In this document: one piece after another, positions 1,884 to 61,244 of the stretch
Layout of the letters: every line of letters starts with the position of its first letter
How positions within the stretch are numbered: the first letter of the stretch is position 1
Origin: an uncultured Thermoprotei archaeon
GTDB taxonomy: Archaea > Thermoproteota > Thermoprotei > QMSL01 > B3-G16
Reading direction: 5' to 3'
Assembly (NCBI GenBank): GCA_964517845.1
Contig: CAZFCQ010000003.1
Span: 35,978 to 99,977 of the forward strand
Length of the DNA: 64,000 nucleotides
Made by a program: the position numbers and the translations under genes
Notes under the pieces: generated by a model
Seen by the model: only the letters and a program-made list of their open reading frames with translations
Database searches by the model: none
What the model was told of the DNA's origin: nothing

Positions 1884-2243
1884 GTGGTGAGTCTCTATAT
1901 GAGTACTATCTCTTTTAAGGCAACATTAGTTGGTAAAAACTTAGTATCTGATCCTTTTGGTGGTAAGAATGTTAAACTTGAGCTTGTTGAAGAGCGAGAA
2001 ATGCCTATGCCTATACTTATTGAGGGACAGGGTTCTAGACAAGAGCTAGCAAGAGAGCTAGCCCCAATAGTTCGGCAAGTCGTGAGATCATTACCTTTTG
2101 CTAGATCAGGAAAAGTTAGTATTCCTCGTCTTACACTATGGCTTACGGAAGATGAATGGGAAAGATTAGAGCCAAAACCCGATATAGGAGATGAAGTTCT
2201 AGTAGTAGTAAAAGGTAGGAATATAGAAATACAAAAAATTTAG
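1884..2243 (+). CDS. Hypothetical protein (119 aa)
   Basis: The ORF has coding-like composition. No family is recognised, and the start may be the internal Met at 1899. Confidence 0.3.
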   Translation: MVSLYMSTISFKATLVGKNLVSDPFGGKNVKLELVEEREMPMPILIEGQGSRQELARELAPIVRQVVRSLPFARSGKVSIPRLTLWLTEDEWERLEPKPDIGDEVLVVVKGRNIEIQKI

Positions 2244-5059: not shown

Positions 5060-5651
5060 ATGCGTACGCGTAAGAAGCCGTCATATAAGATTGAAAATGT
5101 AGTAGCATCTGTAAATTTGCATCAGAAGATCGATCTAAATGCTATAGCTGAAAACGTTCCTAATGCTGAATATAACCCAGAACAGCTAGGCCAATAAGGC
5201 CTAGCTCTGAGAGTTCCCAGGTTTAGTATTCAGACTATCGAAACCTAAAACAGCTACTTTGATATTTAGCTCTGGGAAGATGGTTTGTACAGGAGCAAAG
5301 TCTGAAAAGCAAGTATATAAGACTGTTAAGTCGATAATCCGTACTTTGAAAAAGTATGGTATAGTTATCGAGAAAGAGCCTGAGATAACAATTCAAAATG
5401 TTGTAGCTTCAGGTAATCTTCACGCTGAAGTAAATCTGGAAAAAGTAGCTTATCTCCTTGAAAATAGCATGTACGAACCAGAACAATTCCCTGGTCTCAT
5501 ATATCGTATGGATGACCCTAGAGTAGTTCTTCTGATCTTTAGTAGCGGTAAATTAGTATGTACTGGTGCTAAGCGGGAAGAAGAAGTTAAAAGAGCCGTA
5601 GGTAAGATGTATGAGAAGCTAAGGAACCTGGGTGTCCTATATGAAGAATAA
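5060..5651 (+). CDS. tbp: TATA-box binding protein (TBP), interrupted after codon 42 by a 28-nt stop-containing hairpin insert. Exon 1 is 5060..5185 and the remainder is 5214..5651. The joined product is 187 aa
   Basis: Exon 1 translates as [42 protein letters not shown]. After the insert the sequence continues [31 protein letters not shown]...(second repeat)...[36 protein letters not shown], giving both TBP direct repeats. Removing exactly 28 nt restores the frame and the canonical EQ|FPGL junction. Confidence 0.8.
5186..5213 (+). other. 28-nt insert inside the TBP gene. The stem is AGCTAGGCC / GGCCTAGCT (5184..5192 / 5198..5206), the loop is AATAA (5193..5197), with in-frame TAA at 5195..5197, and the 3' tail is CTCTGAGAG
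   Basis: This is a perfect 9-bp inverted repeat read directly from the sequence. The length (28) is not a multiple of 3. The boundaries can slide by 1-2 nt because of AG microhomology. Confidence 0.7.
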
Positions 5652-6162
5652 GGTGCCTACAGAGCGAAAAGCTGAATTAAATACTCCTCTAGGCAAAATT
5701 GTAATACGTAAATTCATACCTTCAGACTTGGAAGCTGTTATTAAAATTAATAGAAGCTGTCTACCTGAGAATTATCCTCCATACTTTTTTATGCAACATT
5801 ATAGAGAGTTTCCTGAAGCATTCCTTGTAGCAGAACTCAATGGTGAAGTAGTGGGATACGTCATGTGCCGAGTCGAATATGGAATCTCTAATCTGAAACC
5901 ATCTCTCTCCAAAAAAGGGCATATAATTAGCATTGCTGTAGTACCTGAGGTACGTAGAAAAAAAGTGGGAGAAACTTTAATGAAACTAGCTATGCAAGCT
6001 CTAAGAGACATTTATAATGTAAGTGAATACTACCTAGAGGTTAGAGTCTCGAATACTCCTGCAATAAATCTTTACCATAAACTCGGCTACAAGGAGATAA
6101 AGCGAATAATAGGCTATTATCTAGATGGAGAGGATGCTTGGCTTATGGCTAGGCCTGCTTAG
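5632..6162 (+). CDS. N-terminal acetyltransferase (GNAT family, Ard1/RimI-like)
   Basis: The product carries a GNAT fold with acetyl-CoA motifs (...[19 protein letters not shown]...). The start probably lies at Met 5641 and overlaps the TBP stop. Confidence 0.75.
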
Positions 6163-6603
6163 CTATTCTACCATAACCTCTACCTCTCTTACAATTTGTG
6201 CTTTAGGCATGTAAACTTCTAATATACCATTTTTAAGTACTGCTCTCACTTCGTGAGGTTTTATCTTAATTGGTAATTTAACTTTCTTTACTATGTCACC
6301 TTGCCAAAATCTTTCTCTTATCAAGTATTTACCATCCTTTAGTATCTTTTCATTATTACCTAAAGCCTTTATTTCAAGTAATTCTTCCGTTACCTTTATT
6401 TTTATCTGATCTTTATCAAAGCCAGGAAGATCCATTATCACAACGATCTCTTCACCTAAATCTATTATGTCAATAGGAGGATCATATGGCATCTCATAAC
6501 TTACTTTCTCTACAGGTAATGAACTCATAATACTTCTGAACATCATTTCAATTTCTCTTCTTAATTTAAGGATCGCCTTGTAGGCATCATCATAATTTTC
6601 CAT
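6163..6603 (-). CDS. Small heat-shock protein Hsp20
   Basis: An alpha-crystallin domain is present (...DLPGFDKDQIKIKV...KNGILEV...). Confidence 0.8.
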   Translation of the reverse strand: MENYDDAYKAILKLRREIEMMFRSIMSSLPVEKVSYEMPYDPPIDIIDLGEEIVVIMDLPGFDKDQIKIKVTEELLEIKALGNNEKILKDGKYLIRERFWQGDIVKKVKLPIKIKPHEVRAVLKNGILEVYMPKAQIVREVEVMVE

Positions 6604-6761
6604 AGATTATCATTCCTCATTTTAATTTGGTTTAAATATAAGAAGTTAATGAGTATTTCTCCCTTTCAAGGTTGCTATATAACGTTTATTCATATCAGTT
6701 GGCTGACTAAAACTTATTTTACCTAGCTCTCTTATGTTAAAGGACGAGGTGATAGTATCTG

Positions 6762-7334
6762 ATGATAGAAATTCGATGGCATGGTCGAGGAGGACAAGGA
6801 GTAGTCACTGTTAGCCGCCTCCTTGCTATGGCTGCCCTCTATGAAGGTAAGTATGTTCAAGCAATTCCTCAATTTGGCCCCGAAACGCCCTGAAAAAGGG
6901 CGCGGGAGAGAAGTGGTGCGCCAGTTACAGGGTTTACTAGAATCAGCACTGAACCTATAGAAGTACATACTGGTGTCTACAACCCTGACATAGTTGTTGT
7001 AATAGACCCCTTTGTAATTAAGACAGTAAAAGTAACTGAAGGCCTTAAGGAGACAGGCATCTTAATAGCAAATTCCTCTAAAACTCCCTCTGAAGTAAAA
7101 AGTGAGCTAAACATAGCTAATCCAGTTTACGTAGTGGATGCAACTAAAATAGCCCTAGACATATTCAATAGACCGTTCTTCAATACTCCTATGCTTGGCG
7201 CCCTTGTAAAGGTTACAAACGTAGTTTCCTTAAATTCTGTAGAAAAAGCTATCAAAGAAAGATTTAGAGCTGAAATTGCTGAGAAAAATATACAAGCTGT
7301 AAGACGAGCTTATGAAGAGGTGAAGAGTGAATGA
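6762..7334 (+). CDS. porG: Pyruvate/2-oxoacid:ferredoxin oxidoreductase gamma subunit, with an in-frame TGA (6891..6893) inside a 24-nt hairpin insert
   Basis: The N-terminus [41 protein letters not shown] is followed by [TP*KRARE], then [34 protein letters not shown]...[15 protein letters not shown]. Without the 8 extra codons the protein aligns colinearly with PorG (canonical FG.ERRGAPV). An SD-like GAGGTGA lies upstream. Confidence 0.8.
6885..6908 (+). other. 24-nt insert inside porG. The stem is CGCCC / GGGCG (6886..6890 / 6898..6902), the loop is TGAAAAA and begins with the in-frame TGA, and the 3' tail is CGGGAG
   Basis: This is a perfect 5-bp GC stem read from the sequence. The boundaries can slide over 4 positions (GAA/GAG microhomology). 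A flanking CCCG/CGGG pairing is also possible. Confidence 0.65.
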
Positions 7335-10353: not shown

Positions 10354-10738
10354 GTGTAAAAGTTTTGAAGTGAAATATGATGATAACGGAAATCCTCTTA
10401 TCACAGATTATAGAGGTATTTCTAAAGGCACTATCGATAAAGATAAGAGCGTTTCAAAAATATTAAGGCGACGACGTCGACGACGTAGGGTACCAAAGAA
10501 AATTGTAGAAATTGTTAGACTTATTTCTTTTAAGCTACTTTCAGAAAAGATAAAACATAGGGTTATCTTTGGTAATAAAGATGTTATGATCTATCTAGAT
10601 TTCGATCACTTCATTCACATATATCCTGATAAGATCACGATAGCTGGTTTCAACTCTTTAGAGGAAGCCCCTCTAATATACCTGAGAGAGATACTAGAGA
10701 ACTATGGCCCTGTTAAGCTTCTTAGGCCTTTAAGGTGA
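10322..10738 (+). CDS. Hypothetical protein with a poly-Arg (R8) tract
   Basis: The ORF has coding-like composition. The R8 run is encoded by (CGACGACGT)x2. No family is recognised. Confidence 0.35.
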   Translation: MRDEIEKYLNECKSFEVKYDDNGNPLITDYRGISKGTIDKDKSVSKILRRRRRRRRVPKKIVEIVRLISFKLLSEKIKHRVIFGNKDVMIYLDFDHFIHIYPDKITIAGFNSLEEAPLIYLREILENYGPVKLLRPLR

Positions 10739-10811
10739 CACTTCTTAAAAAGTTTTATATCTTGATTTTTTCTTAAGTACGAGGAGAATGTAATCAAGGC
10801 GGGAAATACCT

Positions 10812-13241
10812 ATGCGTAACCTTAGATTTGCACCTAAAATCTTAGATAAACGATGGAATGTGAATGAAGAACTAACTTTATTGCAGAAGTGGAGAGAAGA
10901 AGGCCTCTATCGTTTCAATAAAAATACCAGTAAACCAATATTCTCTATAGATACTCCGCCGCCTTATGCTTCAGGAACATGGCATGTAGGTGCTGCTGCT
11001 CATTATGCTCAAATGGATATGATTGCTAGATATTTTCGTATGAAGGGTTACGAAGTTTACTTCCCCTTTGGGGTGGATAGAAATGGACTTCCTGTTGAAG
11101 TCCAAGTTGAGAAGAAATACAATATCAGTGCACATGAAGTACCTAGAGACAAGTTCTTAGCTTTATGCAAATCTTTTCTAGATGAAGTAGAGAAGGATTT
11201 ACTCAGAATTGTACAAAGATTAGGCCTTAGTGTTACTAATCTAGATGATCCTTATAGAACGGATAGCCCTAAGTATAGAACACTTACCCAAGCCACTTTT
11301 ATAGAATTATGGAAAAAAGGGCTAATCTATGAAGCTGAGAAACCGGTTATCTGGTGCCCTAAATGTAAGACGTCACTAGCTGAATCAGAAGTAGAATATG
11401 CCGAGCGAGAGACTGATCTTGTCTACATAAAGTTCACTGTAAAGGAATCAAATGAAGAGATAGTGATTGCGACTACTCGTCCTGAACTTCTCTGCACTTG
11501 TGGAGCAGTAATATACAATCCTGAGGATAAACGATATCAACATCTCCAAGGAAAGCATGCTGTAGTCCCAATCTTCATGCATGAAGTCCCTATAATTCCT
11601 CATCCTTATGCAAAACCTGAGTTTGGAACGGGACTAGTAATGGTTTGTTCCTTCGGGGATCAAAGTGATGTTAGGCTATTTCGTGAACTAAACTTGAAAC
11701 CTAAGATAGCGATAACCCCTGAAGGTATAATGAATGAGATTGCAGGTCCGTACAAAGGATTAAAGGTTGAAGAAGCTAGAAAGAAAATCATCAAGGACCT
11801 AAAAAGCAAAGATCTTATAGCTAAGATTGAGCGTATAATCCATAGAGTTCCTATATGTTGGAGATCTAAGGATCCTATTGAATTCGTAGCTATGAAGGAG
11901 TATTATCTTAAACAATTAGACTTCAAGAAAGATCTACTTAAGCTTATAGACAATATAAAATTCTTCCCTCCTGAGAGTAAAAGAATGCTAATAAATTGGA
12001 TAAATTCGATAAGCATTGACTGGCCTATTTCTCGCCGTAGATACTATGGTACTGAAATCCCTATATGGTATTGTAAGCGATGTGGTACACCTCATTTACC
12101 TAAACCAGGGAGATATTATAAACCTTGGTGCGAACCTGCACCATTTGAAAGGTGTAAAAATTGTGGTTCAAAGGAGTTCATAGGTGAGAGCAGAGTATTT
12201 GATACATGGATGGATTCAAGCATATCCCCATTATTCATATCAAACTACATGTATGACGAAGAATTCTTTAAAAGAACCTTCCCTTGTACCCTCAGGCCTC
12301 AGGGTTATGATATAATACGAACGTGGCTTTACTATACAATATTAAGAGTATTCCAGCTAACTGGAAAGCCTGCCTTCAAGTATGTTAGAATATCTGGTAT
12401 GGGACTTGATGAAAAAGGAGAAGCTATGCATAAATCCAAGGGCAATATTGTCTATCCAATGCCTATTATTGAAAAATATGGTGCTGACGCCTTTAGATTC
12501 TGGGCAGCATCTGAAGCTAAGTTAGGAGATGACTATAGATATTCTGAAGCAAAGATAAGAGCAGCAAGTCTATTTCTTACTAAACTCTGGAATATCGCAC
12601 GTTTTATATCAAGATTCCCAAAAGTAACGGAAGAGGATTATGTCCTCTTACCCTTAGATCTCATGCTCTTAGGTAATCTAAATGATATAATCAGACAGTG
12701 TAAAGACGGTTATGAAAAATTAGATCCATTTATTCCCTCTAATTTGATTAGGAACTTCACATGGAATGTATTTGCATCACATTATCTTGAAGCAGTCAAG
12801 CCTCGAGCTTATAATTTTAATAACGAGTTTACCGAAGAAGAACAGCATGGCGCATGGTTCACCTTATACACAGCTTTGGAAATTATACTAAAGTTATTAG
12901 CACCTATAGCACCTTTCATAACCGATAGCATATGGCGAAGACTATTCTCAGAAGAAAGCATTCATTCTCAAAAATTTCCAGAACCTAATCCTTCTTGGAA
13001 CACTGAGTACAAGTATATGATTTCTCCATTTATAGAATTCAATAGTAGCATATGGCGTTATAAGAAAGAACACGGTTTAGCATTAAGTCAAGAGCTAAAC
13101 ACGGTAGTTTATGCACCTAAAGAGTTAAAACCCTTTGAACGCGATCTAAAAGCTATGCATAAAATCAAGGAATTACATTTCGAGGAACCTACTGAAGAAG
13201 CCATTGAAATAGGTCCAAGGATCTATATTCTTAAAATCTAA
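10812..13241 (+). CDS. valS: Class Ia aminoacyl-tRNA synthetase, most likely valyl-tRNA synthetase
   Basis: The 809-aa product has a HIGH-region analogue (PPPYASGTWHVGAAAHY), a KMSKS analogue (MHKSKGN) and an editing/CP1 domain. The size fits archaeal ValRS. I cannot fully exclude a LeuRS/IleRS-type enzyme. Confidence 0.6.
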   Translation: MRNLRFAPKILDKRWNVNEELTLLQKWREEGLYRFNKNTSKPIFSIDTPPPYASGTWHVGAAAHYAQMDMIARYFRMKGYEVYFPFGVDRNGLPVEVQVEKKYNISAHEVPRDKFLALCKSFLDEVEKDLLRIVQRLGLSVTNLDDPYRTDSPKYRTLTQATFIELWKKGLIYEAEKPVIWCPKCKTSLAESEVEYAERETDLVYIKFTVKESNEEIVIATTRPELLCTCGAVIYNPEDKRYQHLQGKHAVVPIFMHEVPIIPHPYAKPEFGTGLVMVCSFGDQSDVRLFRELNLKPKIAITPEGIMNEIAGPYKGLKVEEARKKIIKDLKSKDLIAKIERIIHRVPICWRSKDPIEFVAMKEYYLKQLDFKKDLLKLIDNIKFFPPESKRMLINWINSISIDWPISRRRYYGTEIPIWYCKRCGTPHLPKPGRYYKPWCEPAPFERCKNCGSKEFIGESRVFDTWMDSSISPLFISNYMYDEEFFKRTFPCTLRPQGYDIIRTWLYYTILRVFQLTGKPAFKYVRISGMGLDEKGEAMHKSKGNIVYPMPIIEKYGADAFRFWAASEAKLGDDYRYSEAKIRAASLFLTKLWNIARFISRFPKVTEEDYVLLPLDLMLLGNLNDIIRQCKDGYEKLDPFIPSNLIRNFTWNVFASHYLEAVKPRAYNFNNEFTEEEQHGAWFTLYTALEIILKLLAPIAPFITDSIWRRLFSEESIHSQKFPEPNPSWNTEYKYMISPFIEFNSSIWRYKKEHGLALSQELNTVVYAPKELKPFERDLKAMHKIKELHFEEPTEEAIEIGPRIYILKI

Positions 13242-13323: not shown

Positions 13324-16227
13324 ATGTCCAAGCTACAGGGTAGTGTAGAGGAAGTCTCTAAAAAGACTAATGTTTTCAAGTTATTAGCTGACTCCATAAG
13401 AGATGCATTACATGAAAGAGGATTCTTAGAAGCCACAGAGCCGCAGAAAAAAGCTATACCCTTAATATTACAAGGCTACAATGTACTACTTATCGCTCCT
13501 ACTGGCACAGGTAAGACAGAGGCAGCAATTTTACCTATTTTTAGTATGTTTCTTTCCCTTAAAAATGATAAGAAGCTAGAACCAGGAATTTATATACTTT
13601 ATATAACACCCTTACGCGCGCTTAATAGAGACCTCTTAGACAGGCTTACATGGTGGGGAGAAAAGTTAGGTATAAGTGTTGCTGTTCGTCACGGAGATAC
13701 TGAACAGTCAGAAAGAACTAAGCAAGCAAAGAAACCTCCCGAATTATTAATAACAACTCCTGAAACATTACAAGCTTTACTTTCAGGTAGACGAATGCGT
13801 GCTCATCTAAGTAAAGTACACTGGGTAATAGTGGATGAGGTACATGAATTAGCTGAAGACAAACGTGGCTCACAACTTACTTTAGCTCTTGAGCGCTTAC
13901 GCCTTGTATGCAACAGAGACTTTCAGATAGTAGGGCTTTCAGCTACAATTGGCTCCCCTCAAGAAGTGGCCCACTTCTTAGTAGGTGCAAATAGAGATGT
14001 TAGAATAGTTAAGGTCTCTGTAACGCGTCTTATGAAATTAAAGGTAGTATTTCCTAAACCTATGCAAGAAGATTATGAGCTCAGCTTAAAGCTTTATACG
14101 CATCCAGAAGTTGCAGCTAGACTTAGATATATTAAATCCCTTATTGAGAAGCATAGGTCTGCTTTACTTTTTGTTAATACACGCGCAATAGCAGAGGTGC
14201 TAGCTTCTAGGTTCCATGTATGGGATGTTAACTTTCCTATTAGTGTTCATCATGGTTCCTTAGCTAAGCCTTCAAGAATTGCAGCAGAGAAAGGTCTTAA
14301 AAGCGGAGAGTTAAAAGCGTTAGTTTCTACGTCCTCCCTAGAGCTTGGAATAGATATAGGCCATGTTGATCTAGTCATACAGTATATGTCCCCTAGGCAA
14401 GTGACCCGTTTAGTACAAAGAGTAGGGCGCTCAGGGCATAGAATAGGGGGTATCGCTAAGGGAATCATAATTACTGCCGATCCTGATGATACTCTAGAGG
14501 CTATGGTTATTTGTCGTAAAGCATTAAATGAAGAACTAGAACCTATTTCAATACCTAAAAAACCACTCGATGTACTTAATCATCAAATAGTAGCTCTCTT
14601 TATGTTAAAAAGTAGATGGACGATTGATGAAATACTCTCACTATATGGACGTGCGTATCCTTATAAGGATCTAACAAAAGATGATCTTCTCTTTGTATTG
14701 CGCTATATGCACAGCCGATATCCCCGACTTGCATGGCTTTCTGAAGAAGATGGAGTCGTGCTCAAACCTAGACGTAGTAGGGAAATGTACCAATATTTCT
14801 TTGAGGAACTCTCTATGATACCTGATGAAAGGCACTACCTAGTAATAAACCATGAAGATAACACCCCGATAGGCTTATTAGACGAGGCTTTTCTAGCTGA
14901 GTATGGAGAACCTGGGATAAAGTTCATATTTAGAGGAAGCGTATGGGTAATTAAGGAAATCACACATGATCGAGTTTTAGTAACCCCATCTACAGATCCT
15001 ACAGGTGCTATACCATCATGGGTAGGTGAGGAGATTCCTGTTCCCTTTGAGGTTGCTCATGAAGTAGGTATATTGAAACGACATGTCGTAGAGGAACTAG
15101 AGAAAGGTAAAAGCTTAAAGGAGATAGCCCAGGAATTGGTATCTAAATATCCTATAGACCAAGAATCTGCTTATAGAGCTCTTGCTGAGATAGAGGCCCA
15201 ATATAACAAGGGACTACCTGTGCCTTCAGATAAAGTTGTTCTCGTAGAGACGTGGGGAAATATTGCTATAATTCATACGCATCTAGGAACTTTGGCTAAT
15301 AGAGCCCTAGCCAGAATGATGGGAGAGATTTTAGCAGAGATGCTTGGATCGAGTATAGGAGTACAACAAGATGCTTACAGAATAGTGCTACAACTACCTA
15401 AGAGACTCAAACCAAGTTCTTTTAGAAATGTGTTCAGGAAGCTTTATATGAGCGATTTAGACAAACTTATGAGACGCGTAACTTTACGCTCCGGCCTCTT
15501 CAAACGACGCTTAATACATGTAGCTAGACGCTTTGGCGCTCTTAAAAAATCGATAGACTTTACTGAAATTAGCTTAAGACGCCTTGTCGAAATGTTTGAT
15601 GGTACTCCTATATATGAAGAAGCATACTCAGAATTCCTTCAAAAGGACATAGACATAGACTCTGTTAAACAGTTCCTACATAGAATTGAAGAAGGTAGGA
15701 TAAGGCTAGACTATATAGACTCTAAAGATCCCTCTCCCTTGAGTAGATTAGCTTTAGAGCGTATTGCACGAAGAACTGAATTGATACCCCCTAAGAAGTT
15801 GCATCGCATAATAATTGAAGCAGCTCGTGCACGTCTACTTAATGAAGCACAAATTTTTATATGTACAGAGAATTGGGACTGGCTGGATAATATCAGAATA
15901 AAAGACTTACCAGAAAAGGTTGCTTGTCCTAAATGTGGATCAAAAAGAATAGGTCTAGTTAAGGCTGATGAGAAAACAGCTATAAAATTATTAACCCTTA
16001 AAGGAAAGGTAAGAAGTAAGCGAGATCATAGAATAATTCAGGAAGTAAAGGAAAGTGCGCAACTTATAGAGAGGTATGGTAAAATAGCAGCATTAGTTCT
16101 TTCAGGGCGTGGTCTATCTGTCAGGGATGCTAAGCATATCTTAGAACGAGAATCAAAGCTCTCAGAGAAGCTTATAGAATTAATAATTCAAGCGGAGAAA
16201 GAGGCATTAAAAAGACGTTTTCTCTAA
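13324..16227 (+). CDS. lhr: Lhr-like large ATP-dependent helicase (DEAD/DEAH box, superfamily 2)
   Basis: The 967-aa product has Walker A (APTGTGKT), DEVH and helicase C motifs, plus a long Lhr-type C-terminal extension with a Zn ribbon (CPKCGS). Confidence 0.8.
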   Translation: MSKLQGSVEEVSKKTNVFKLLADSIRDALHERGFLEATEPQKKAIPLILQGYNVLLIAPTGTGKTEAAILPIFSMFLSLKNDKKLEPGIYILYITPLRALNRDLLDRLTWWGEKLGISVAVRHGDTEQSERTKQAKKPPELLITTPETLQALLSGRRMRAHLSKVHWVIVDEVHELAEDKRGSQLTLALERLRLVCNRDFQIVGLSATIGSPQEVAHFLVGANRDVRIVKVSVTRLMKLKVVFPKPMQEDYELSLKLYTHPEVAARLRYIKSLIEKHRSALLFVNTRAIAEVLASRFHVWDVNFPISVHHGSLAKPSRIAAEKGLKSGELKALVSTSSLELGIDIGHVDLVIQYMSPRQVTRLVQRVGRSGHRIGGIAKGIIITADPDDTLEAMVICRKALNEELEPISIPKKPLDVLNHQIVALFMLKSRWTIDEILSLYGRAYPYKDLTKDDLLFVLRYMHSRYPRLAWLSEEDGVVLKPRRSREMYQYFFEELSMIPDERHYLVINHEDNTPIGLLDEAFLAEYGEPGIKFIFRGSVWVIKEITHDRVLVTPSTDPTGAIPSWVGEEIPVPFEVAHEVGILKRHVVEELEKGKSLKEIAQELVSKYPIDQESAYRALAEIEAQYNKGLPVPSDKVVLVETWGNIAIIHTHLGTLANRALARMMGEILAEMLGSSIGVQQDAYRIVLQLPKRLKPSSFRNVFRKLYMSDLDKLMRRVTLRSGLFKRRLIHVARRFGALKKSIDFTEISLRRLVEMFDGTPIYEEAYSEFLQKDIDIDSVKQFLHRIEEGRIRLDYIDSKDPSPLSRLALERIARRTELIPPKKLHRIIIEAARARLLNEAQIFICTENWDWLDNIRIKDLPEKVACPKCGSKRIGLVKADEKTAIKLLTLKGKVRSKRDHRIIQEVKESAQLIERYGKIAALVLSGRGLSVRDAKHILERESKLSEKLIELIIQAEKEALKRRFL

Positions 16228-27130: not shown

Positions 27131-28228
27131 TTGTGGTGTAGGGTAATGAGTGCTTTACCCTTCTCAAGAAAAGCTCTCGAGGAATACCTTTATTCTATCT
27201 ATAAAACTGATAAACTTCAAGTCCTTGAGATTTCCCTATTAGGTAAAGGATGGCATGCAGAAGCATGGCGGATAAGAGTAATGATAGGCTCTGAAACAAG
27301 AAATCTAGTAATGAAATTCCTGAAAGGAGAAAAAGGTTTTGGACACGATTATCCTGCTGATAGAGCACAAGTGCTTCTTTTAGCTCATAAAGACTTTAAC
27401 GAATTACCTAATCATATAAAGTCAATAGATGTAGGCTATATTGACAGGGATAATAAACTCCACAGTGTAGGTGATTATGAAGAGTTCTTCATCTTAATGG
27501 AAGAGGCTATAGGTCGTCCTTATATAGAGGATCTTAGAGAGATTAAATCTCGTGGTTACCTCATTGAACACGACCTTAAACGTGTAGAAATACTAGCAAA
27601 TTACCTCGCTTCAATCCATAGAGAAAAGTTCTTTGGAGATGATGAAACGAAGATGAGACTTTACTTCAGGAGAATACGTGACCTTGTTGGACATGGTGAA
27701 ATGATATTCGGTGTCATAGATTCAGCATATCCTTATCAAAATCCCTATACTAAGCAGCTAAAAACTGTTGAAAGAAAAGTTATTGAATGGCGATGGAGGC
27801 TTAAGCAATATTGGCATAGACTATGCAATGTACATGGTGACTATCATCCGTTTAATATACGATTTACTGAAAAGGATGAATTAGTATTAATGGATAGATC
27901 TAGAGGAAGATGGGGTGAAGCAGCGGACGATGTGTCATGCTTAGCTATAAACCTACTGTGGTTTGCACTTCTGGATAAGGGCTCTTTCAAAGGTCCTTTT
28001 GCAGAACTCTTCTCTTCCTTTATTAATCATTACATAAAAGAGACGAACGATGAAGAGTTATTAAAAGTAATTCAGCCCTGGTTTGCCTTTAGAGCCTTGG
28101 TTATAGCAAGCCCGTTATTTTACCCTGAAAATCCAGAAAGTGTACGTAATGCTCTAATAAACTTCGCAGTAAACGTACTCGATTTAGATCTCTTTGAGAT
28201 AGATAAATTGCAAGAGTTATTGGTGTAA
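27131..28228 (+). CDS. Protein-kinase-like (APH/choline-kinase fold) phosphotransferase
   Basis: The Brenner motif HGDYHPFNI and a downstream Asp are present. The substrate is unknown. Confidence 0.55.
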   Translation: MWCRVMSALPFSRKALEEYLYSIYKTDKLQVLEISLLGKGWHAEAWRIRVMIGSETRNLVMKFLKGEKGFGHDYPADRAQVLLLAHKDFNELPNHIKSIDVGYIDRDNKLHSVGDYEEFFILMEEAIGRPYIEDLREIKSRGYLIEHDLKRVEILANYLASIHREKFFGDDETKMRLYFRRIRDLVGHGEMIFGVIDSAYPYQNPYTKQLKTVERKVIEWRWRLKQYWHRLCNVHGDYHPFNIRFTEKDELVLMDRSRGRWGEAADDVSCLAINLLWFALLDKGSFKGPFAELFSSFINHYIKETNDEELLKVIQPWFAFRALVIASPLFYPENPESVRNALINFAVNVLDLDLFEIDKLQELLV

Positions 28229-40229: not shown

Positions 40230-40787
40230 TTATGCTTTAAACCACTTGAAGACATAATAGCGTATAGCACGTGTTTGTGGATGTACAACTGCTATTACAA
40301 ACCTCTTTCTAACACTATGAGAAAGTCTTCCTGCTCTTATTATTTCGATAGGATCCATTTTTGCCTCATATGGCATTACATGCACTAAAAAAGGTGCGTG
40401 GTCTATACCTGGCCCGTATCTATATACAGCAAATGTACTTCCAAACTTTAATCCTGGTCTAACTACATATCCTTTGCTTCTTAAGTCTTTATAAACCTCA
40501 TAAACATCATCAAACATATAGTATATCTTCCTTGCATATTCTCTCACATCCTCAGGCTTAAGGCTTCTCCCTTGAGAATCGAAAACCTCAATTCTCCCTT
40601 TTTCGAGAAGATAGAGAGCTTCAAGTAATGAGAGCTCGACAGGTCTCTCTATGTCTAGTTCCTTAGGTTTGCTTATGCCTACTAATTTCCCATAAAATCC
40701 CTCTTTATAAAGCCTAGGAGCTTCTCTCTTATCCCAAGCTATAATTCGAGAGCCTATGAGCACAGCTTTTATCTTATCTTCGCTCAT
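40230..40787 (-). CDS. endA: tRNA-splicing endonuclease, catalytic subunit (EndA)
   Basis: The 185-aa product has the C-terminal catalytic domain ...YRYGPGIDHAPFLVHV...RLSHSVRKRFVIAVV (Tyr/His/Lys triad context). Confidence 0.8.
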   Translation of the reverse strand: MSEDKIKAVLIGSRIIAWDKREAPRLYKEGFYGKLVGISKPKELDIERPVELSLLEALYLLEKGRIEVFDSQGRSLKPEDVREYARKIYYMFDDVYEVYKDLRSKGYVVRPGLKFGSTFAVYRYGPGIDHAPFLVHVMPYEAKMDPIEIIRAGRLSHSVRKRFVIAVVHPQTRAIRYYVFKWFKA

Positions 40788-50723: not shown

Positions 50724-50799
50724 TGGTAGCCCGGCGGGGATTCGAACCCCGGTCGGCGGGGCCAGAGCCCGCCATGCTTGGCCGCTACACCACCGGGCT
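50724..50799 (-). tRNA. tRNA-Gln (anticodon CUG), 76 nt including a genomically encoded 3' CCA
   Basis: The cloverleaf was derived by hand. The acceptor is AGCCCGG/CCGGGCU. The T-arm is CGGGG-UUCGAAU-CCCCG. The anticodon stem is GCGGG/CCCGC with loop CUCUGGC (U33, CUG, G37). Confidence 0.85.
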
Positions 50800-59498: not shown

Positions 59499-61244
59499 AT
59501 GAGAAGAGCATCCAGAGATACTAACGCTAAGGAATTATTTCTCTTACGAGCTGGTACTATGTTAGCAGTCTCCTTACTTACTTTTTCATCACTATCCTCA
59601 TCACCTTTATCATTAAGCCTAGCATTCATAGCTCCTCTTCTAGCCCTAAAAAGCATGTCGTATGCAGTTATCTACGACCTCATAGCTTATTGGTTCTTAT
59701 GCTTTCTTTATCAGACACCTTTAGCTGTAATACTGCTACCCTCAATCATAATAATTATTTTACAATCTCTAAATACATGGATTAGCGGTCTAGGATTCAT
59801 TTCAATAATGTTATCAGCATTGAATAATCGCTTTACGTTTTTTGCTCCGTCTATTCTTTTAATCACATCCTCCTTTATGCCTGCAAAGGAAGCTCTAATA
59901 TTCTCCATATTTACTTCCATCTCTTCTCTCTGTTTATTAGTATGGAGTGGCTCTTATCAATCTTTACTAATGGTGATTCCTCCTTTCATGAATTTCTCAA
60001 TACCCACTGGTATGCAGTTTAATGGAAGTATAGTTGATACGATTCTTCAATCCTACCCTTTCATTTCTAGTCTTCTACGGATATTCCTAGCTGATTTAGT
60101 AGTACCATTACAATTCTCCCTCTACGTCTCCTCCTCCTATATATCATCAATGATTCATGAAAAGATGAAACATAGATTAGGCGCATTTTTATCGTTGCTA
60201 GCATCCACATTTTTACCCTTGGTTTTGATTATTGCAAATCATGGATTTCTCTTAGCTAAATATGGGCTTTCAATCCCTTATCATAACTACTTGCTCTTGC
60301 TAATAGTAACTTTAGCTTTATGCTATACTTTAACTCAAATCTCGCTTCTTTCAGAGAGACTAGCATATGCCTCTAACTCCTCTAACTATGGTTATTATCA
60401 AAGTAGCCCTTTAAATAAAACCCTATCTCTCGATGATGTAGGAGATATGGAATGGCTTAAGGAAGAGCTTTATGAATCAATAGTACTTCCACTTATCGAA
60501 TCTAAATTAATGCGATATTATAATGTAAAGCCTGTTAAAGGTATACTTTTATTTGGCCCTCCGGGATGTGGTAAGACTCTAATAATGCGTGCATTAGCTT
60601 CATCGATAAGAGCTAATTTCCTTTACATCAGGTTTAGTGATATCCTCTCTAAATGGTATGGAGAAAGTGAGCGTAGAATAGCTGAAATCTTTGAGAAGGC
60701 AAGAAGTATGAGACCTTGTATAATATTTCTTGATGAGATTGATGCGCTAGGACGTAGTCGTGATTCATATTCATCTGATGATGTAGCGCCTAGGATACTA
60801 AGTGTTATATTAAGCGAGATGGATGGTCTGGATCCAAGCGAAGGCGTTATCGTCGTAGCAGCTACAAATACTCCTCACCTCTTAGATCCTGCACTCTTAA
60901 GACCAGGTCGTTTCGATAAACTAATATACGTTCCTCCTCCTGACTTAAAAGCTAGAGCTGAAATCCTTAGAGTTCACCTCCGTAATATGCCCCTAAGTGA
61001 AGATGTAAGTATAGAGAAATTAGCTTCACTTACGGATGGTTTTTCTGGCGCAGATTTAGCGATGTTATGTCAGGAGGTAGCTAGAAGAGTGGCTCTAGAA
61101 GCTGCTAAAACTAAGCATTACCGTAGAATTACAATGGAAGACTTTCTCAAGGTCCTTTCTCGCATGAAGCCAAGTATAACATCAGAGCTTTTAACTAAGT
61201 ATGTAGAATTTCAGCGATTTTATGAAAGGAGATTTCTAATATAA
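59499..61244 (+). CDS. Membrane-embedded AAA+ ATPase (N-terminal polytopic TM domain + single AAA module)
   Basis: The protein has about 300 aa of TM helices, then Walker A (GPPGCGKT), Walker B (IIFLDEID), SRH and sensor 2. Confidence 0.75.
   Translation: MRRASRDTNAKELFLLRAGTMLAVSLLTFSSLSSSPLSLSLAFIAPLLALKSMSYAVIYDLIAYWFLCFLYQTPLAVILLPSIIIIILQSLNTWISGLGFISIMLSALNNRFTFFAPSILLITSSFMPAKEALIFSIFTSISSLCLLVWSGSYQSLLMVIPPFMNFSIPTGMQFNGSIVDTILQSYPFISSLLRIFLADLVVPLQFSLYVSSSYISSMIHEKMKHRLGAFLSLLASTFLPLVLIIANHGFLLAKYGLSIPYHNYLLLLIVTLALCYTLTQISLLSERLAYASNSSNYGYYQSSPLNKTLSLDDVGDMEWLKEELYESIVLPLIESKLMRYYNVKPVKGILLFGPPGCGKTLIMRALASSIRANFLYIRFSDILSKWYGESERRIAEIFEKARSMRPCIIFLDEIDALGRSRDSYSSDDVAPRILSVILSEMDGLDPSEGVIVVAATNTPHLLDPALLRPGRFDKLIYVPPPDLKARAEILRVHLRNMPLSEDVSIEKLASLTDGFSGADLAMLCQEVARRVALEAAKTKHYRRITMEDFLKVLSRMKPSITSELLTKYVEFQRFYERRFLI

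Follow-up and report, generated by a model that had tools for sequence, protein, structure and literature searches.

Short hairpin inserts with the features of bulge-helix-bulge introns in the TBP and porG genes of an uncultured Thermoprotei archaeon

Two central protein-coding genes in a 64,000-nt stretch of contig CAZFCQ010000003.1 (37% GC) from an uncultured, heat-loving Thermoprotei archaeon, hereafter the window, are each interrupted by a short hairpin insert that carries a stop codon. The TBP gene at 5060..5651 (+) is interrupted by 28 nt, and porG at 6762..7334 (+), which encodes the gamma subunit of pyruvate:ferredoxin oxidoreductase, is interrupted by 24 nt. The geometry of the inserts, their covariation in related genomes and the type of splicing endonuclease encoded in the window indicate, with a probability of about 0.88, that both are archaeal bulge-helix-bulge (BHB) introns lying inside coding sequence and excised by the tRNA-splicing endonuclease EndA. 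On this reading they belong with the pre-mRNA BHB introns of the cbf5 type, extended to other host genes and to another lineage, and do not form a new class. Together with its flanks the window gave ~84 kb and ~85 genes for analysis.

The unspliced open reading frame (ORF) of the TBP gene stops after 45 codons (...EYNPEQLGQ, stop), and its continuation lies in another frame. The 45-residue ORF of exon 1 matches Pfam TBP, and deletion of the 28 nt produces a 187-residue TBP that is matched end to end by Pfam TBP (both repeats) and NCBIfam TBP, without a gap at the junction. The frame is broken after ...EYNPEQ. Three equivalent placements of the insert boundary are possible there, and the BHB motif selects 5184..5211. 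The insert holds a perfect GC-rich hairpin, GCTAGGCC-AATAA-GGCCTAGC, with an in-frame TAA inside the loop. With its flanks it is laid out as CAGA-AC↓A-GCTAGGCC-AATAA-GGCCTAGC-TCTG-AG↓A (arrows mark predicted cleavage), all on the forward strand. Exon 1 (5060..5183) holds M1 to E41 and the first base of the Gln42 codon, and exon 2 (5212..5651) runs from the last two bases of that codon to the stop. The exon half of the 4-bp central helix H (H5', CAGA, 5178..5181) pairs with its intron half (H3', TCTG, 5206..5209). The 5' bulge AC↓A occupies 5182..5184 and the 3' bulge AG↓A 5210..5212, with predicted cleavage at 5183/5184 and 5211/5212. The predicted intron consists of an A, the helix h' (5185..5192 paired with 5198..5205, loop 5193..5197), H3' and a final AG, and the outer helix h is the lone pair C5177:G5213. 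The hairpin also contains, at 5189..5201, the GGCC-N5-GGCC palindrome GGCCAATAAGGCC (an SfiI-type site), which is probably incidental.

The porG gene is the first gene of an otherwise intact porGDAB operon. Its unspliced ORF stops after 43 codons (...FGPETP, stop) and continues in the same frame; the 43-residue ORF of exon 1 matches Pfam POR. Deletion of the 24 nt at 6885..6908, an in-frame insert that breaks the protein after ...FGPE, produces a 182-residue PorG matched end to end by Pfam POR and NCBIfam PorC, again with a gapless junction. The insert holds a perfect GC-rich hairpin, CGCCCT-GAAAA-AGGGCG, in which the in-frame TGA (6891..6893) straddles the stem and the loop. Its layout on the forward strand is CCCG-AA↓A-[CGCCCT GAAAA AGGGCG]-CGGG-AG↓A, where the exon half of H (H5', CCCG, 6879..6882) is paired with CGGG (H3', 6903..6906). 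The bulges AA↓A (6883..6885) and AG↓A (6907..6909) place predicted cleavage at 6884/6885 and 6908/6909. Between these sites lie an A, h' (6886..6891 paired with 6897..6902, loop 6892..6896), H3' and AG, and the outer helix is the lone pair C6878:G6910. Exon 1 (6762..6884) encodes M1 to E41 and exon 2 (6909..7334) R42 to the stop, followed by porD, porA and porB. The minimum-energy fold of porG already includes the core formed by H, the bulge and h'.

A sequence-only reading of the same DNA had described these two inserts, 28 nt in TBP and 24 nt in porG, as perfect GC-rich hairpins with a stop in or at the loop whose removal restores consensus proteins, and this description holds. It had also held that no canonical BHB could be drawn for either insert. 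That claim is in substance mistaken. The definition applied here asks for a 4-bp helix where exon and intron meet, with a 3-nt bulge on either side of it (PMC5829648), and the 4-bp H, the 3-nt bulges, h' (6-8 bp in the two inserts) and exact, symmetric cleavage positions can all be drawn. The core is canonical and only the outer helix is weak. The motif is formally of the HBh' class because the outer helix has only 1 bp.

The combination is rare in the window. Permissive BHB scans of the whole window, like an initial "ORF-rescue" scan, gave largely chance matches or joins across gene boundaries, and were replaced by hairpin-first scans. Short perfect hairpins with at least five G:C pairs occur in the window only as the TBP insert, the porG insert and one tRNA stem, and a stringent BHB scan with a stem of at least 6 bp returned only the two inserts. 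No other hairpin in the window has BHB flanks and interrupts an ORF, and removal of no other candidate fuses two otherwise broken frames. We put the probability of a chance 4-bp Watson-Crick match at a given register at ~0.4% per gene, and that of two exact BHB registers occurring together at ~1e-5 to 1e-4. Two AT-rich 5-bp candidates at 16176..16195 (+) and 27472..27492 (-) are at chance level, with ~6 such hits in shuffles, and rescue no ORF. No gene with such an insert beyond TBP and porG was found among the ~85 genes of the window and flanks, and hairpin-first scans of ~1 Mb from more distant relatives found no such intron. About a dozen candidates in that distant DNA were discarded after translation, which showed a junk frame on one side or a real ORF crossing the supposed junction; ~30 weaker hits of a relaxed rescan were judged to be noise or operon boundaries without testing one by one. 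Apart from one tRNA, the window has no match in Rfam. The sole tRNA seen (Gln, 50724..50799) has no intron, and no tRNA lies in the flanks.

Among the relatives compared, inserts were found in close relatives only. TBP is uninterrupted in all 80 GTDB species-representative genomes among the matches listed (at most 75% TBP identity), which belong to Methanomethylicia, Culexmicrobium, Bathyarchaeia and Thermoprotei; the best protein match, at 78% in a metagenome-assembled genome (MAG) of Methanomethylicia, is full length. Likewise, the FGPER.GAP motif of PorG is unbroken in 80 of 80 metagenomic relatives among the matches listed (at most 64% identity). The matches listed in these two scans did not include the window's own genome, and the useful relatives were obtained by exact-cluster look-up of the truncated fragments and by searches with the exon-1 peptides. 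The TBP exon-1 search and the cluster-mates of the fragments gave truncated proteins only. All seven database proteins at least 82% identical to TBP exon 1 are truncated (42-58 aa), and the seven clusters all end in ...EYNPEQ plus 2-4 differing residues before a stop. One more truncated PorG variant was found by search. The exact spliced, intron-less proteins are absent among ~15 billion proteins, in which the truncated fragments are present. The top-scoring TBP match was set aside as an unrelated protein: it is a 275-aa TBP (L084 332..1159, ENA ERZ27254865) with three tandem TBP repeats rather than two, and has no relation to this genome.

Inserts at the same sites were found in four other genomes, GCA_964544255.1 (sequences L171 and L173), SRR26701729 (L174), GCA_003650925.1 (L175) and ERZ1742239 NODE_866 (L176), which have a GC content of 40-49%, exon flanks 65-87% identical to the window, flanking genes at about 70% nucleotide identity and the same synteny. 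The source sites are hydrothermal sediments of the Guaymas type, for example the samples behind JGI 3300021472 / SRR7051320, ERZ1742239 and SRR26701729. In each of their junction regions exactly one BHB solution exists, and it restores the consensus peptide. The set for the first TBP repeat comprises 28 nt in the window, 32 in L171, 31 in L175 and 26 in L176. The porG set comprises 24 nt in the window and 21, 21, 20 and 22 nt in L173 to L176. L175 additionally carries an intron in the second TBP repeat, so that 10 introns with 20 bulges were compared. The split genes escape public annotation: NCBI lists three of the TBP exon-1 fragments (DRZ82_02985, J7L11_06035 and DRN15_00395) as "hypothetical protein", and no porG gene is called at L175 6571..7282, so that these MAGs appear to be without intact TBP and PorG.

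The comparisons showed that the paired parts are maintained while the unpaired parts vary. Helix H has four Watson-Crick pairs with 3-nt spacing on both sides in 10/10 introns, and in each case H and h' together close the 5' bulge. The cleavage sites predicted by the motif coincide with the boundaries set independently by protein alignment, in the window as in the four other genomes. Covariation was assessed in alignments of five sequences each, that of TBP being made up of the four orthologous introns and the repeat-2 intron of L175. All 113 pair cells are kept; no pair is broken by substitution, and six pairs show compensatory change, among them an H pair in porG and another in TBP. In porG, 50/50 cells are paired with two compensatory pairs, a result reached by 10 of 500 shuffles, and slid controls give at most 54%. 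In TBP, 63/63 cells are paired with four compensatory pairs, which none of 500 shuffles reaches; slid controls give at most 46%. The change in helix H of porG is found in L173, where a synonymous exon substitution in a Pro codon (CCC to CCT) is matched by an intron change from CGGG to CAGG (C-G to U-A). The intron loops differ wholly between genomes, the middle bulge base varies, and the lengths range from 20 to 32 nt and cover all three residues modulo 3, so that some versions shift the frame and others stay in frame. Because the exons are intact and the inserts change only compensatorily or in loops and bulges across five genomes, purifying selection rather than decay is indicated. A-N-A is the sequence of all 20 bulges, the predicted cut falling after N; this reflects either an enzyme preference of the clade or a common origin. 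The TBP and porG introns alike start with A, and the 3' exons start with AG.

The second TBP intron of GCA_003650925.1 (L175, QMSP01000001.1, 5465..5491) is 27 nt long, in frame and located at the homologous site of repeat 2 (...YEPEQ↓FPGLIY...), at which the window's own TBP has no intron. This intron conforms to the strict hBHBh' form: its outer helix has 4 bp (GAAC/GTTC), H is CGGA/TCCG, the bulges are AC↓A and AA↓A, and h' has 7 bp. The repeat-1 and repeat-2 sites have the common exon context ...CC[A/G]GAAC↓AGTTCCC..., which suggests that the TBP intron was copied into the paralogous site.

The window encodes a candidate enzyme for excision. The gene at 40230..40787 (-) codes for the catalytic (alpha) subunit of EndA, the tRNA-splicing endonuclease (TIGR00324, 111.9 bits). 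Its best relatives in the PDB are 3p1z_B, 3ajv_B, 2zyz_B and 2cv8_A; the closest solved structures are alpha (catalytic) chains of the heterotetrameric enzymes of A. pernix, P. aerophilum and S. tokodaii. The alignment crosses the Crenarchaea-specific loop without a gap and places K40 opposite K44 of A. pernix, and the protein has loop residues that the loop-less EndA of M. kandleri (5x89) lacks. This loop is what permits cleavage of the relaxed HBh' and hBH motifs, in which one bulge is imperfectly closed (PMC5829648). Judged by its residues, the window EndA is of the broad-specificity crenarchaeal heterotetramer type; an (alpha-beta)2 enzyme with this loop and its Lys would be expected to cut relaxed motifs outside a tRNA context. 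The proposal in the sequence-only reading that the endonuclease encoded at 40230..40787 excises the inserts is thus strongly supported by geometry, covariation and EndA type.

EndA cleaves after the second base of a bulge. In the proposed pathway, the four exon bases just 5' of the insert would pair with four bases near its 3' end to form the central helix H in the pre-mRNA, and the GC-rich hairpin of the insert would serve as helix h', leaving a 3-nt A-N-A bulge on each side of H. A heterotetrameric EndA containing the catalytic subunit encoded at 40230..40787 would then cut after the second base of each bulge, and an RNA ligase, by analogy possibly RtcB, would join the exons. The joined exons would encode full-length TBP (...EYNPEQ↓FPGL...) and PorG (...FGPE↓RSGAP...), while translation of the unspliced mRNA would terminate after 2-5 codons. 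We infer the actual cleavage and ligation, the identity of the ligase and any regulatory role.

Several observations weigh against EndA splicing of the inserts. The outer helix that closes the 3' bulge has 1 bp in 9/10 introns, including both introns of the window, so the motif is the relaxed HBh' and not the strict one. The BHB conformer of TBP lies ~6 kcal/mol above a competing fold (37 C, 59-nt context). The central helix of the first TBP intron, CAGA/TCTG, is invariant in the four orthologous introns, and covariation in this helix comes only from the paralogous repeat-2 intron (CGGA/TCCG). With five sequences per set that are related by descent, the covariation statistics are indicative, not definitive. 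Neither the EndA beta subunit nor RtcB was found by Pfam calls in the ~84 kb of window and flanks. Finally, the separate assemblies of the window's genome that contain both inserts may share overlapping read sets.

The origin of the window from a MAG raises the question of a sequencing or assembly artefact. Such an origin of the inserts is extremely improbable, given that the 2.4-kb region with both inserts is 100% identical across separately built ENA, JGI and Logan assemblies made with different pipelines, and given the divergent versions of the inserts in four genomes from other samples. Inactivating palindromic insertions, leaving pseudogenes or disrupting one of several paralogues with a coincidental BHB fit, would account for the stop that each insert introduces, for the splitting of both genes by gene callers and for the annotation of the fragments as hypothetical proteins, and further copies of TBP or porG could exist elsewhere in the genome. 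This explanation is very unlikely. The interruptions persist in five genomes whose flanks are 65-87% identical, both exons are intact and consensus-like, porG leads an otherwise intact operon, no second TBP or second porG was found within the window, and two exact BHB registers would have to coincide at the low joint chance estimated above. The inserts also do not have the features of group I or group II introns, with their catalytic RNA core of hundreds of nt, or of inteins, with their in-frame protein-splicing domain, being 20-32 nt long, with stops and often frame-shifting.

Programmed translational bypass, in which the ribosome would take off at a Glu codon, skip the hairpin and stop and land on a Glu codon at the 3' end of the insert, was the second mechanism put forward in the sequence-only reading. 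Both inserts of the window follow GAA and end in GAG with a stop and hairpin between them, and in porG a hop and splicing would yield identical proteins. The GAA...GAG pattern, however, is a property of the window and breaks down in its relatives, where inserts end in GAA or GAT: the porG landing triplets are GAG, GAA, GAT, GAA and GAT, with GAT (Asp) in 2/5, and the triplet at the landing position of the repeat-2 TBP intron is AAG. As that reading had correctly noted, a hop from GAA to GAG in TBP would delete Gln42; this residue of PEQFPG is kept by every relative. Bypass requires a stop immediately 3' of the take-off codon, whereas the stops here lie 2-5 codons past it and are never adjacent. 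The covarying 4-bp helix between exon and intron tail and the fixed 3-nt spacing would also be left unexplained, and bypass is contradicted on these grounds to the point of being most improbable. Slightly more room is left for removal by RNA machinery other than EndA, or for a structured element with another role, such as a hairpin for regulated pausing or termination from which short peptides result. Recognition by something else would be compatible with the relaxed 3' side and with the competing fold of TBP, and splicing itself is a prediction. Against this, every defining feature of EndA-substrate geometry is present and conserved, one member has the strict motif, full-length TBP is presumably indispensable, and we know of no other archaeal system for precise excision of 20-32 nt; this alternative is improbable as well, and no observation requires it. 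EndA splicing of BHB introns remains the preferred reading.

BHB introns in a protein gene, cbf5, have reportedly been known since 2002, through work attributed to Watanabe (2002) and later to Yoshinari (2006). The cbf5 pre-mRNA introns of Crenarchaeota are of tRNA-intron size and often have the relaxed motif (Yokobori 2009, PMC2738675); archaeal tRNA introns range from 11 to 175 nt (PMC2738675). Two papers treat no protein-gene case other than cbf5 (PMC2738675, PMC5829648), a 2020 paper states outright that cbf5 has the only BHB intron reported in archaeal mRNA and adds a Haloferax case in a 5' untranslated region (UTR) (PMC7714728), and for pre-mRNA substrates a 2025 paper refers to the three cbf5 papers and no others (PMC12397907). 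No TBP or POR intron is reported in the literature searched. Against this background the terms "new class of mini-intron" and "essentially undescribed for Archaea", used in the sequence-only reading, overstate the case: the cbf5 introns are a precedent of tRNA-intron size and often of the same relaxed motif. Within the literature searched, TBP and porG would join cbf5 as archaeal protein-coding genes with such introns.

The introns described here resemble those of cbf5 in Aeropyrum, Sulfolobales and Desulfurococcales (PMC2738675) in being short, located in coding sequence and bordered by a BHB that is often relaxed, in their host having a heterotetrameric EndA, and in being restricted to a lineage with gain and loss. 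They differ in their host genes, TBP and porG, and in their lineage, MAGs labelled "Thermoprotei archaeon" with TBPs nearest to the Methanomethylicia/Culexarchaeia type. They differ further in that one gene can hold two of them, at corresponding positions of an internal repeat, and in the A-N-A sequence of 20/20 bulges, and splicing is here a prediction. Non-canonical tRNA introns of Crenarchaeota and ARMAN, which have (alpha-beta)2 or epsilon2 EndA with a specific loop (PMC5829648, PMC3241643), share the motif class, the enzyme need and the size, and they too accumulate in lineages with broad-specificity EndA, as here. Unlike tRNA introns, the present ones would be recognized in an mRNA without a tRNA body to aid recognition, and codon requirements limit the exon half of H.

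Haloferax volcanii HVO_1309 (PMC7714728) is likewise an mRNA with a BHB for EndA, but its intron lies in the 5'-UTR and rebuilds no frame, and the host is a euryarchaeon with another EndA type. In eukaryotes, splicing of XBP1 (26 nt) and HAC1 by IRE1 and RtcB also involves a very short, structure-defined intron, a protein endonuclease and an RtcB-type ligase, and a message left unspliced is translated into a different or truncated product. Neither IRE1 nor its twin stem-loop motif is related to EndA or the BHB, however, and regulation is established there, whereas it is purely speculative here. The bypass elements of T4 gene 60 and of Magnusiomyces mitochondria (byps) are similar in placing a short hairpin and stop in a conserved ORF that nevertheless gives a normal protein. 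In the present introns, by contrast, the match between take-off and landing sites is not conserved, the stop is non-adjacent and a hop would delete a conserved TBP residue.

If the predictions hold, two unrelated central genes in a clade of uncultured hydrothermal Thermoproteota would carry such introns, TBP with up to two of them, and mRNA would be a recurrent substrate of the tRNA-splicing machinery rather than a one-gene curiosity. The TBP repeat-1 and repeat-2 pair offers a natural test case for the gain of BHB introns, and the compact 20-32-nt substrates with their invariant A-N-A bulge would be convenient for studying how EndA recognizes relaxed motifs. Split genes of this kind are also an annotation problem, as they make an essential gene look missing or broken in MAGs and affect estimates of completeness and metabolic inference. 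More speculatively, and in our view doubtfully, the introns may form a conserved control point at which the output of TBP and pyruvate:ferredoxin oxidoreductase is gated by EndA and ligase, a counterpart of IRE1/RtcB and XBP1, with BHB introns copying themselves into paralogous exon contexts and many more possible in these genomes. The repeat-2 TBP intron would in that case show that protein-coding genes gain introns by a mechanism that is still active.

Three further observations concern other genes. A split gene for TrmI (tRNA m1A58 methyltransferase), ~8.2-8.7 kb upstream of window position 1 (L168 1..532 (-), ENA ERZ27227320 k141_910475), was considered as a third case and rejected: it has neither a hairpin nor a BHB, and its frame shifts by +1 at a T6 run. 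Its two ORFs, one of 62 aa for the N-domain and one of 192 aa for the catalytic part, meet at AAG AAG TTT TTT C/GTC TTT AAA, and the gene calls are identical in a second assembly (L169), for which gene calls and not DNA were compared. A genuine frameshift, programmed +1 frameshifting and a homopolymer error are all candidate causes of the split. At window 59499..61244 (+), a 581-aa ORF was reduced by the ENA caller to its C-terminal 265 aa, an AAA ATPase with Vps4_C. No family match was obtained for the N-terminal ~316 aa, and four tiny ORFs were called on the opposite strand. Genes for a crenactin-like actin and arcadin-1 lie near thermosome, Alba and SMC-like genes (L168 6151..7422 (-) and 10605..10949 (+); window ~1899..2243), a neighbourhood consistent with affiliation to the Thermoproteota (TACK).

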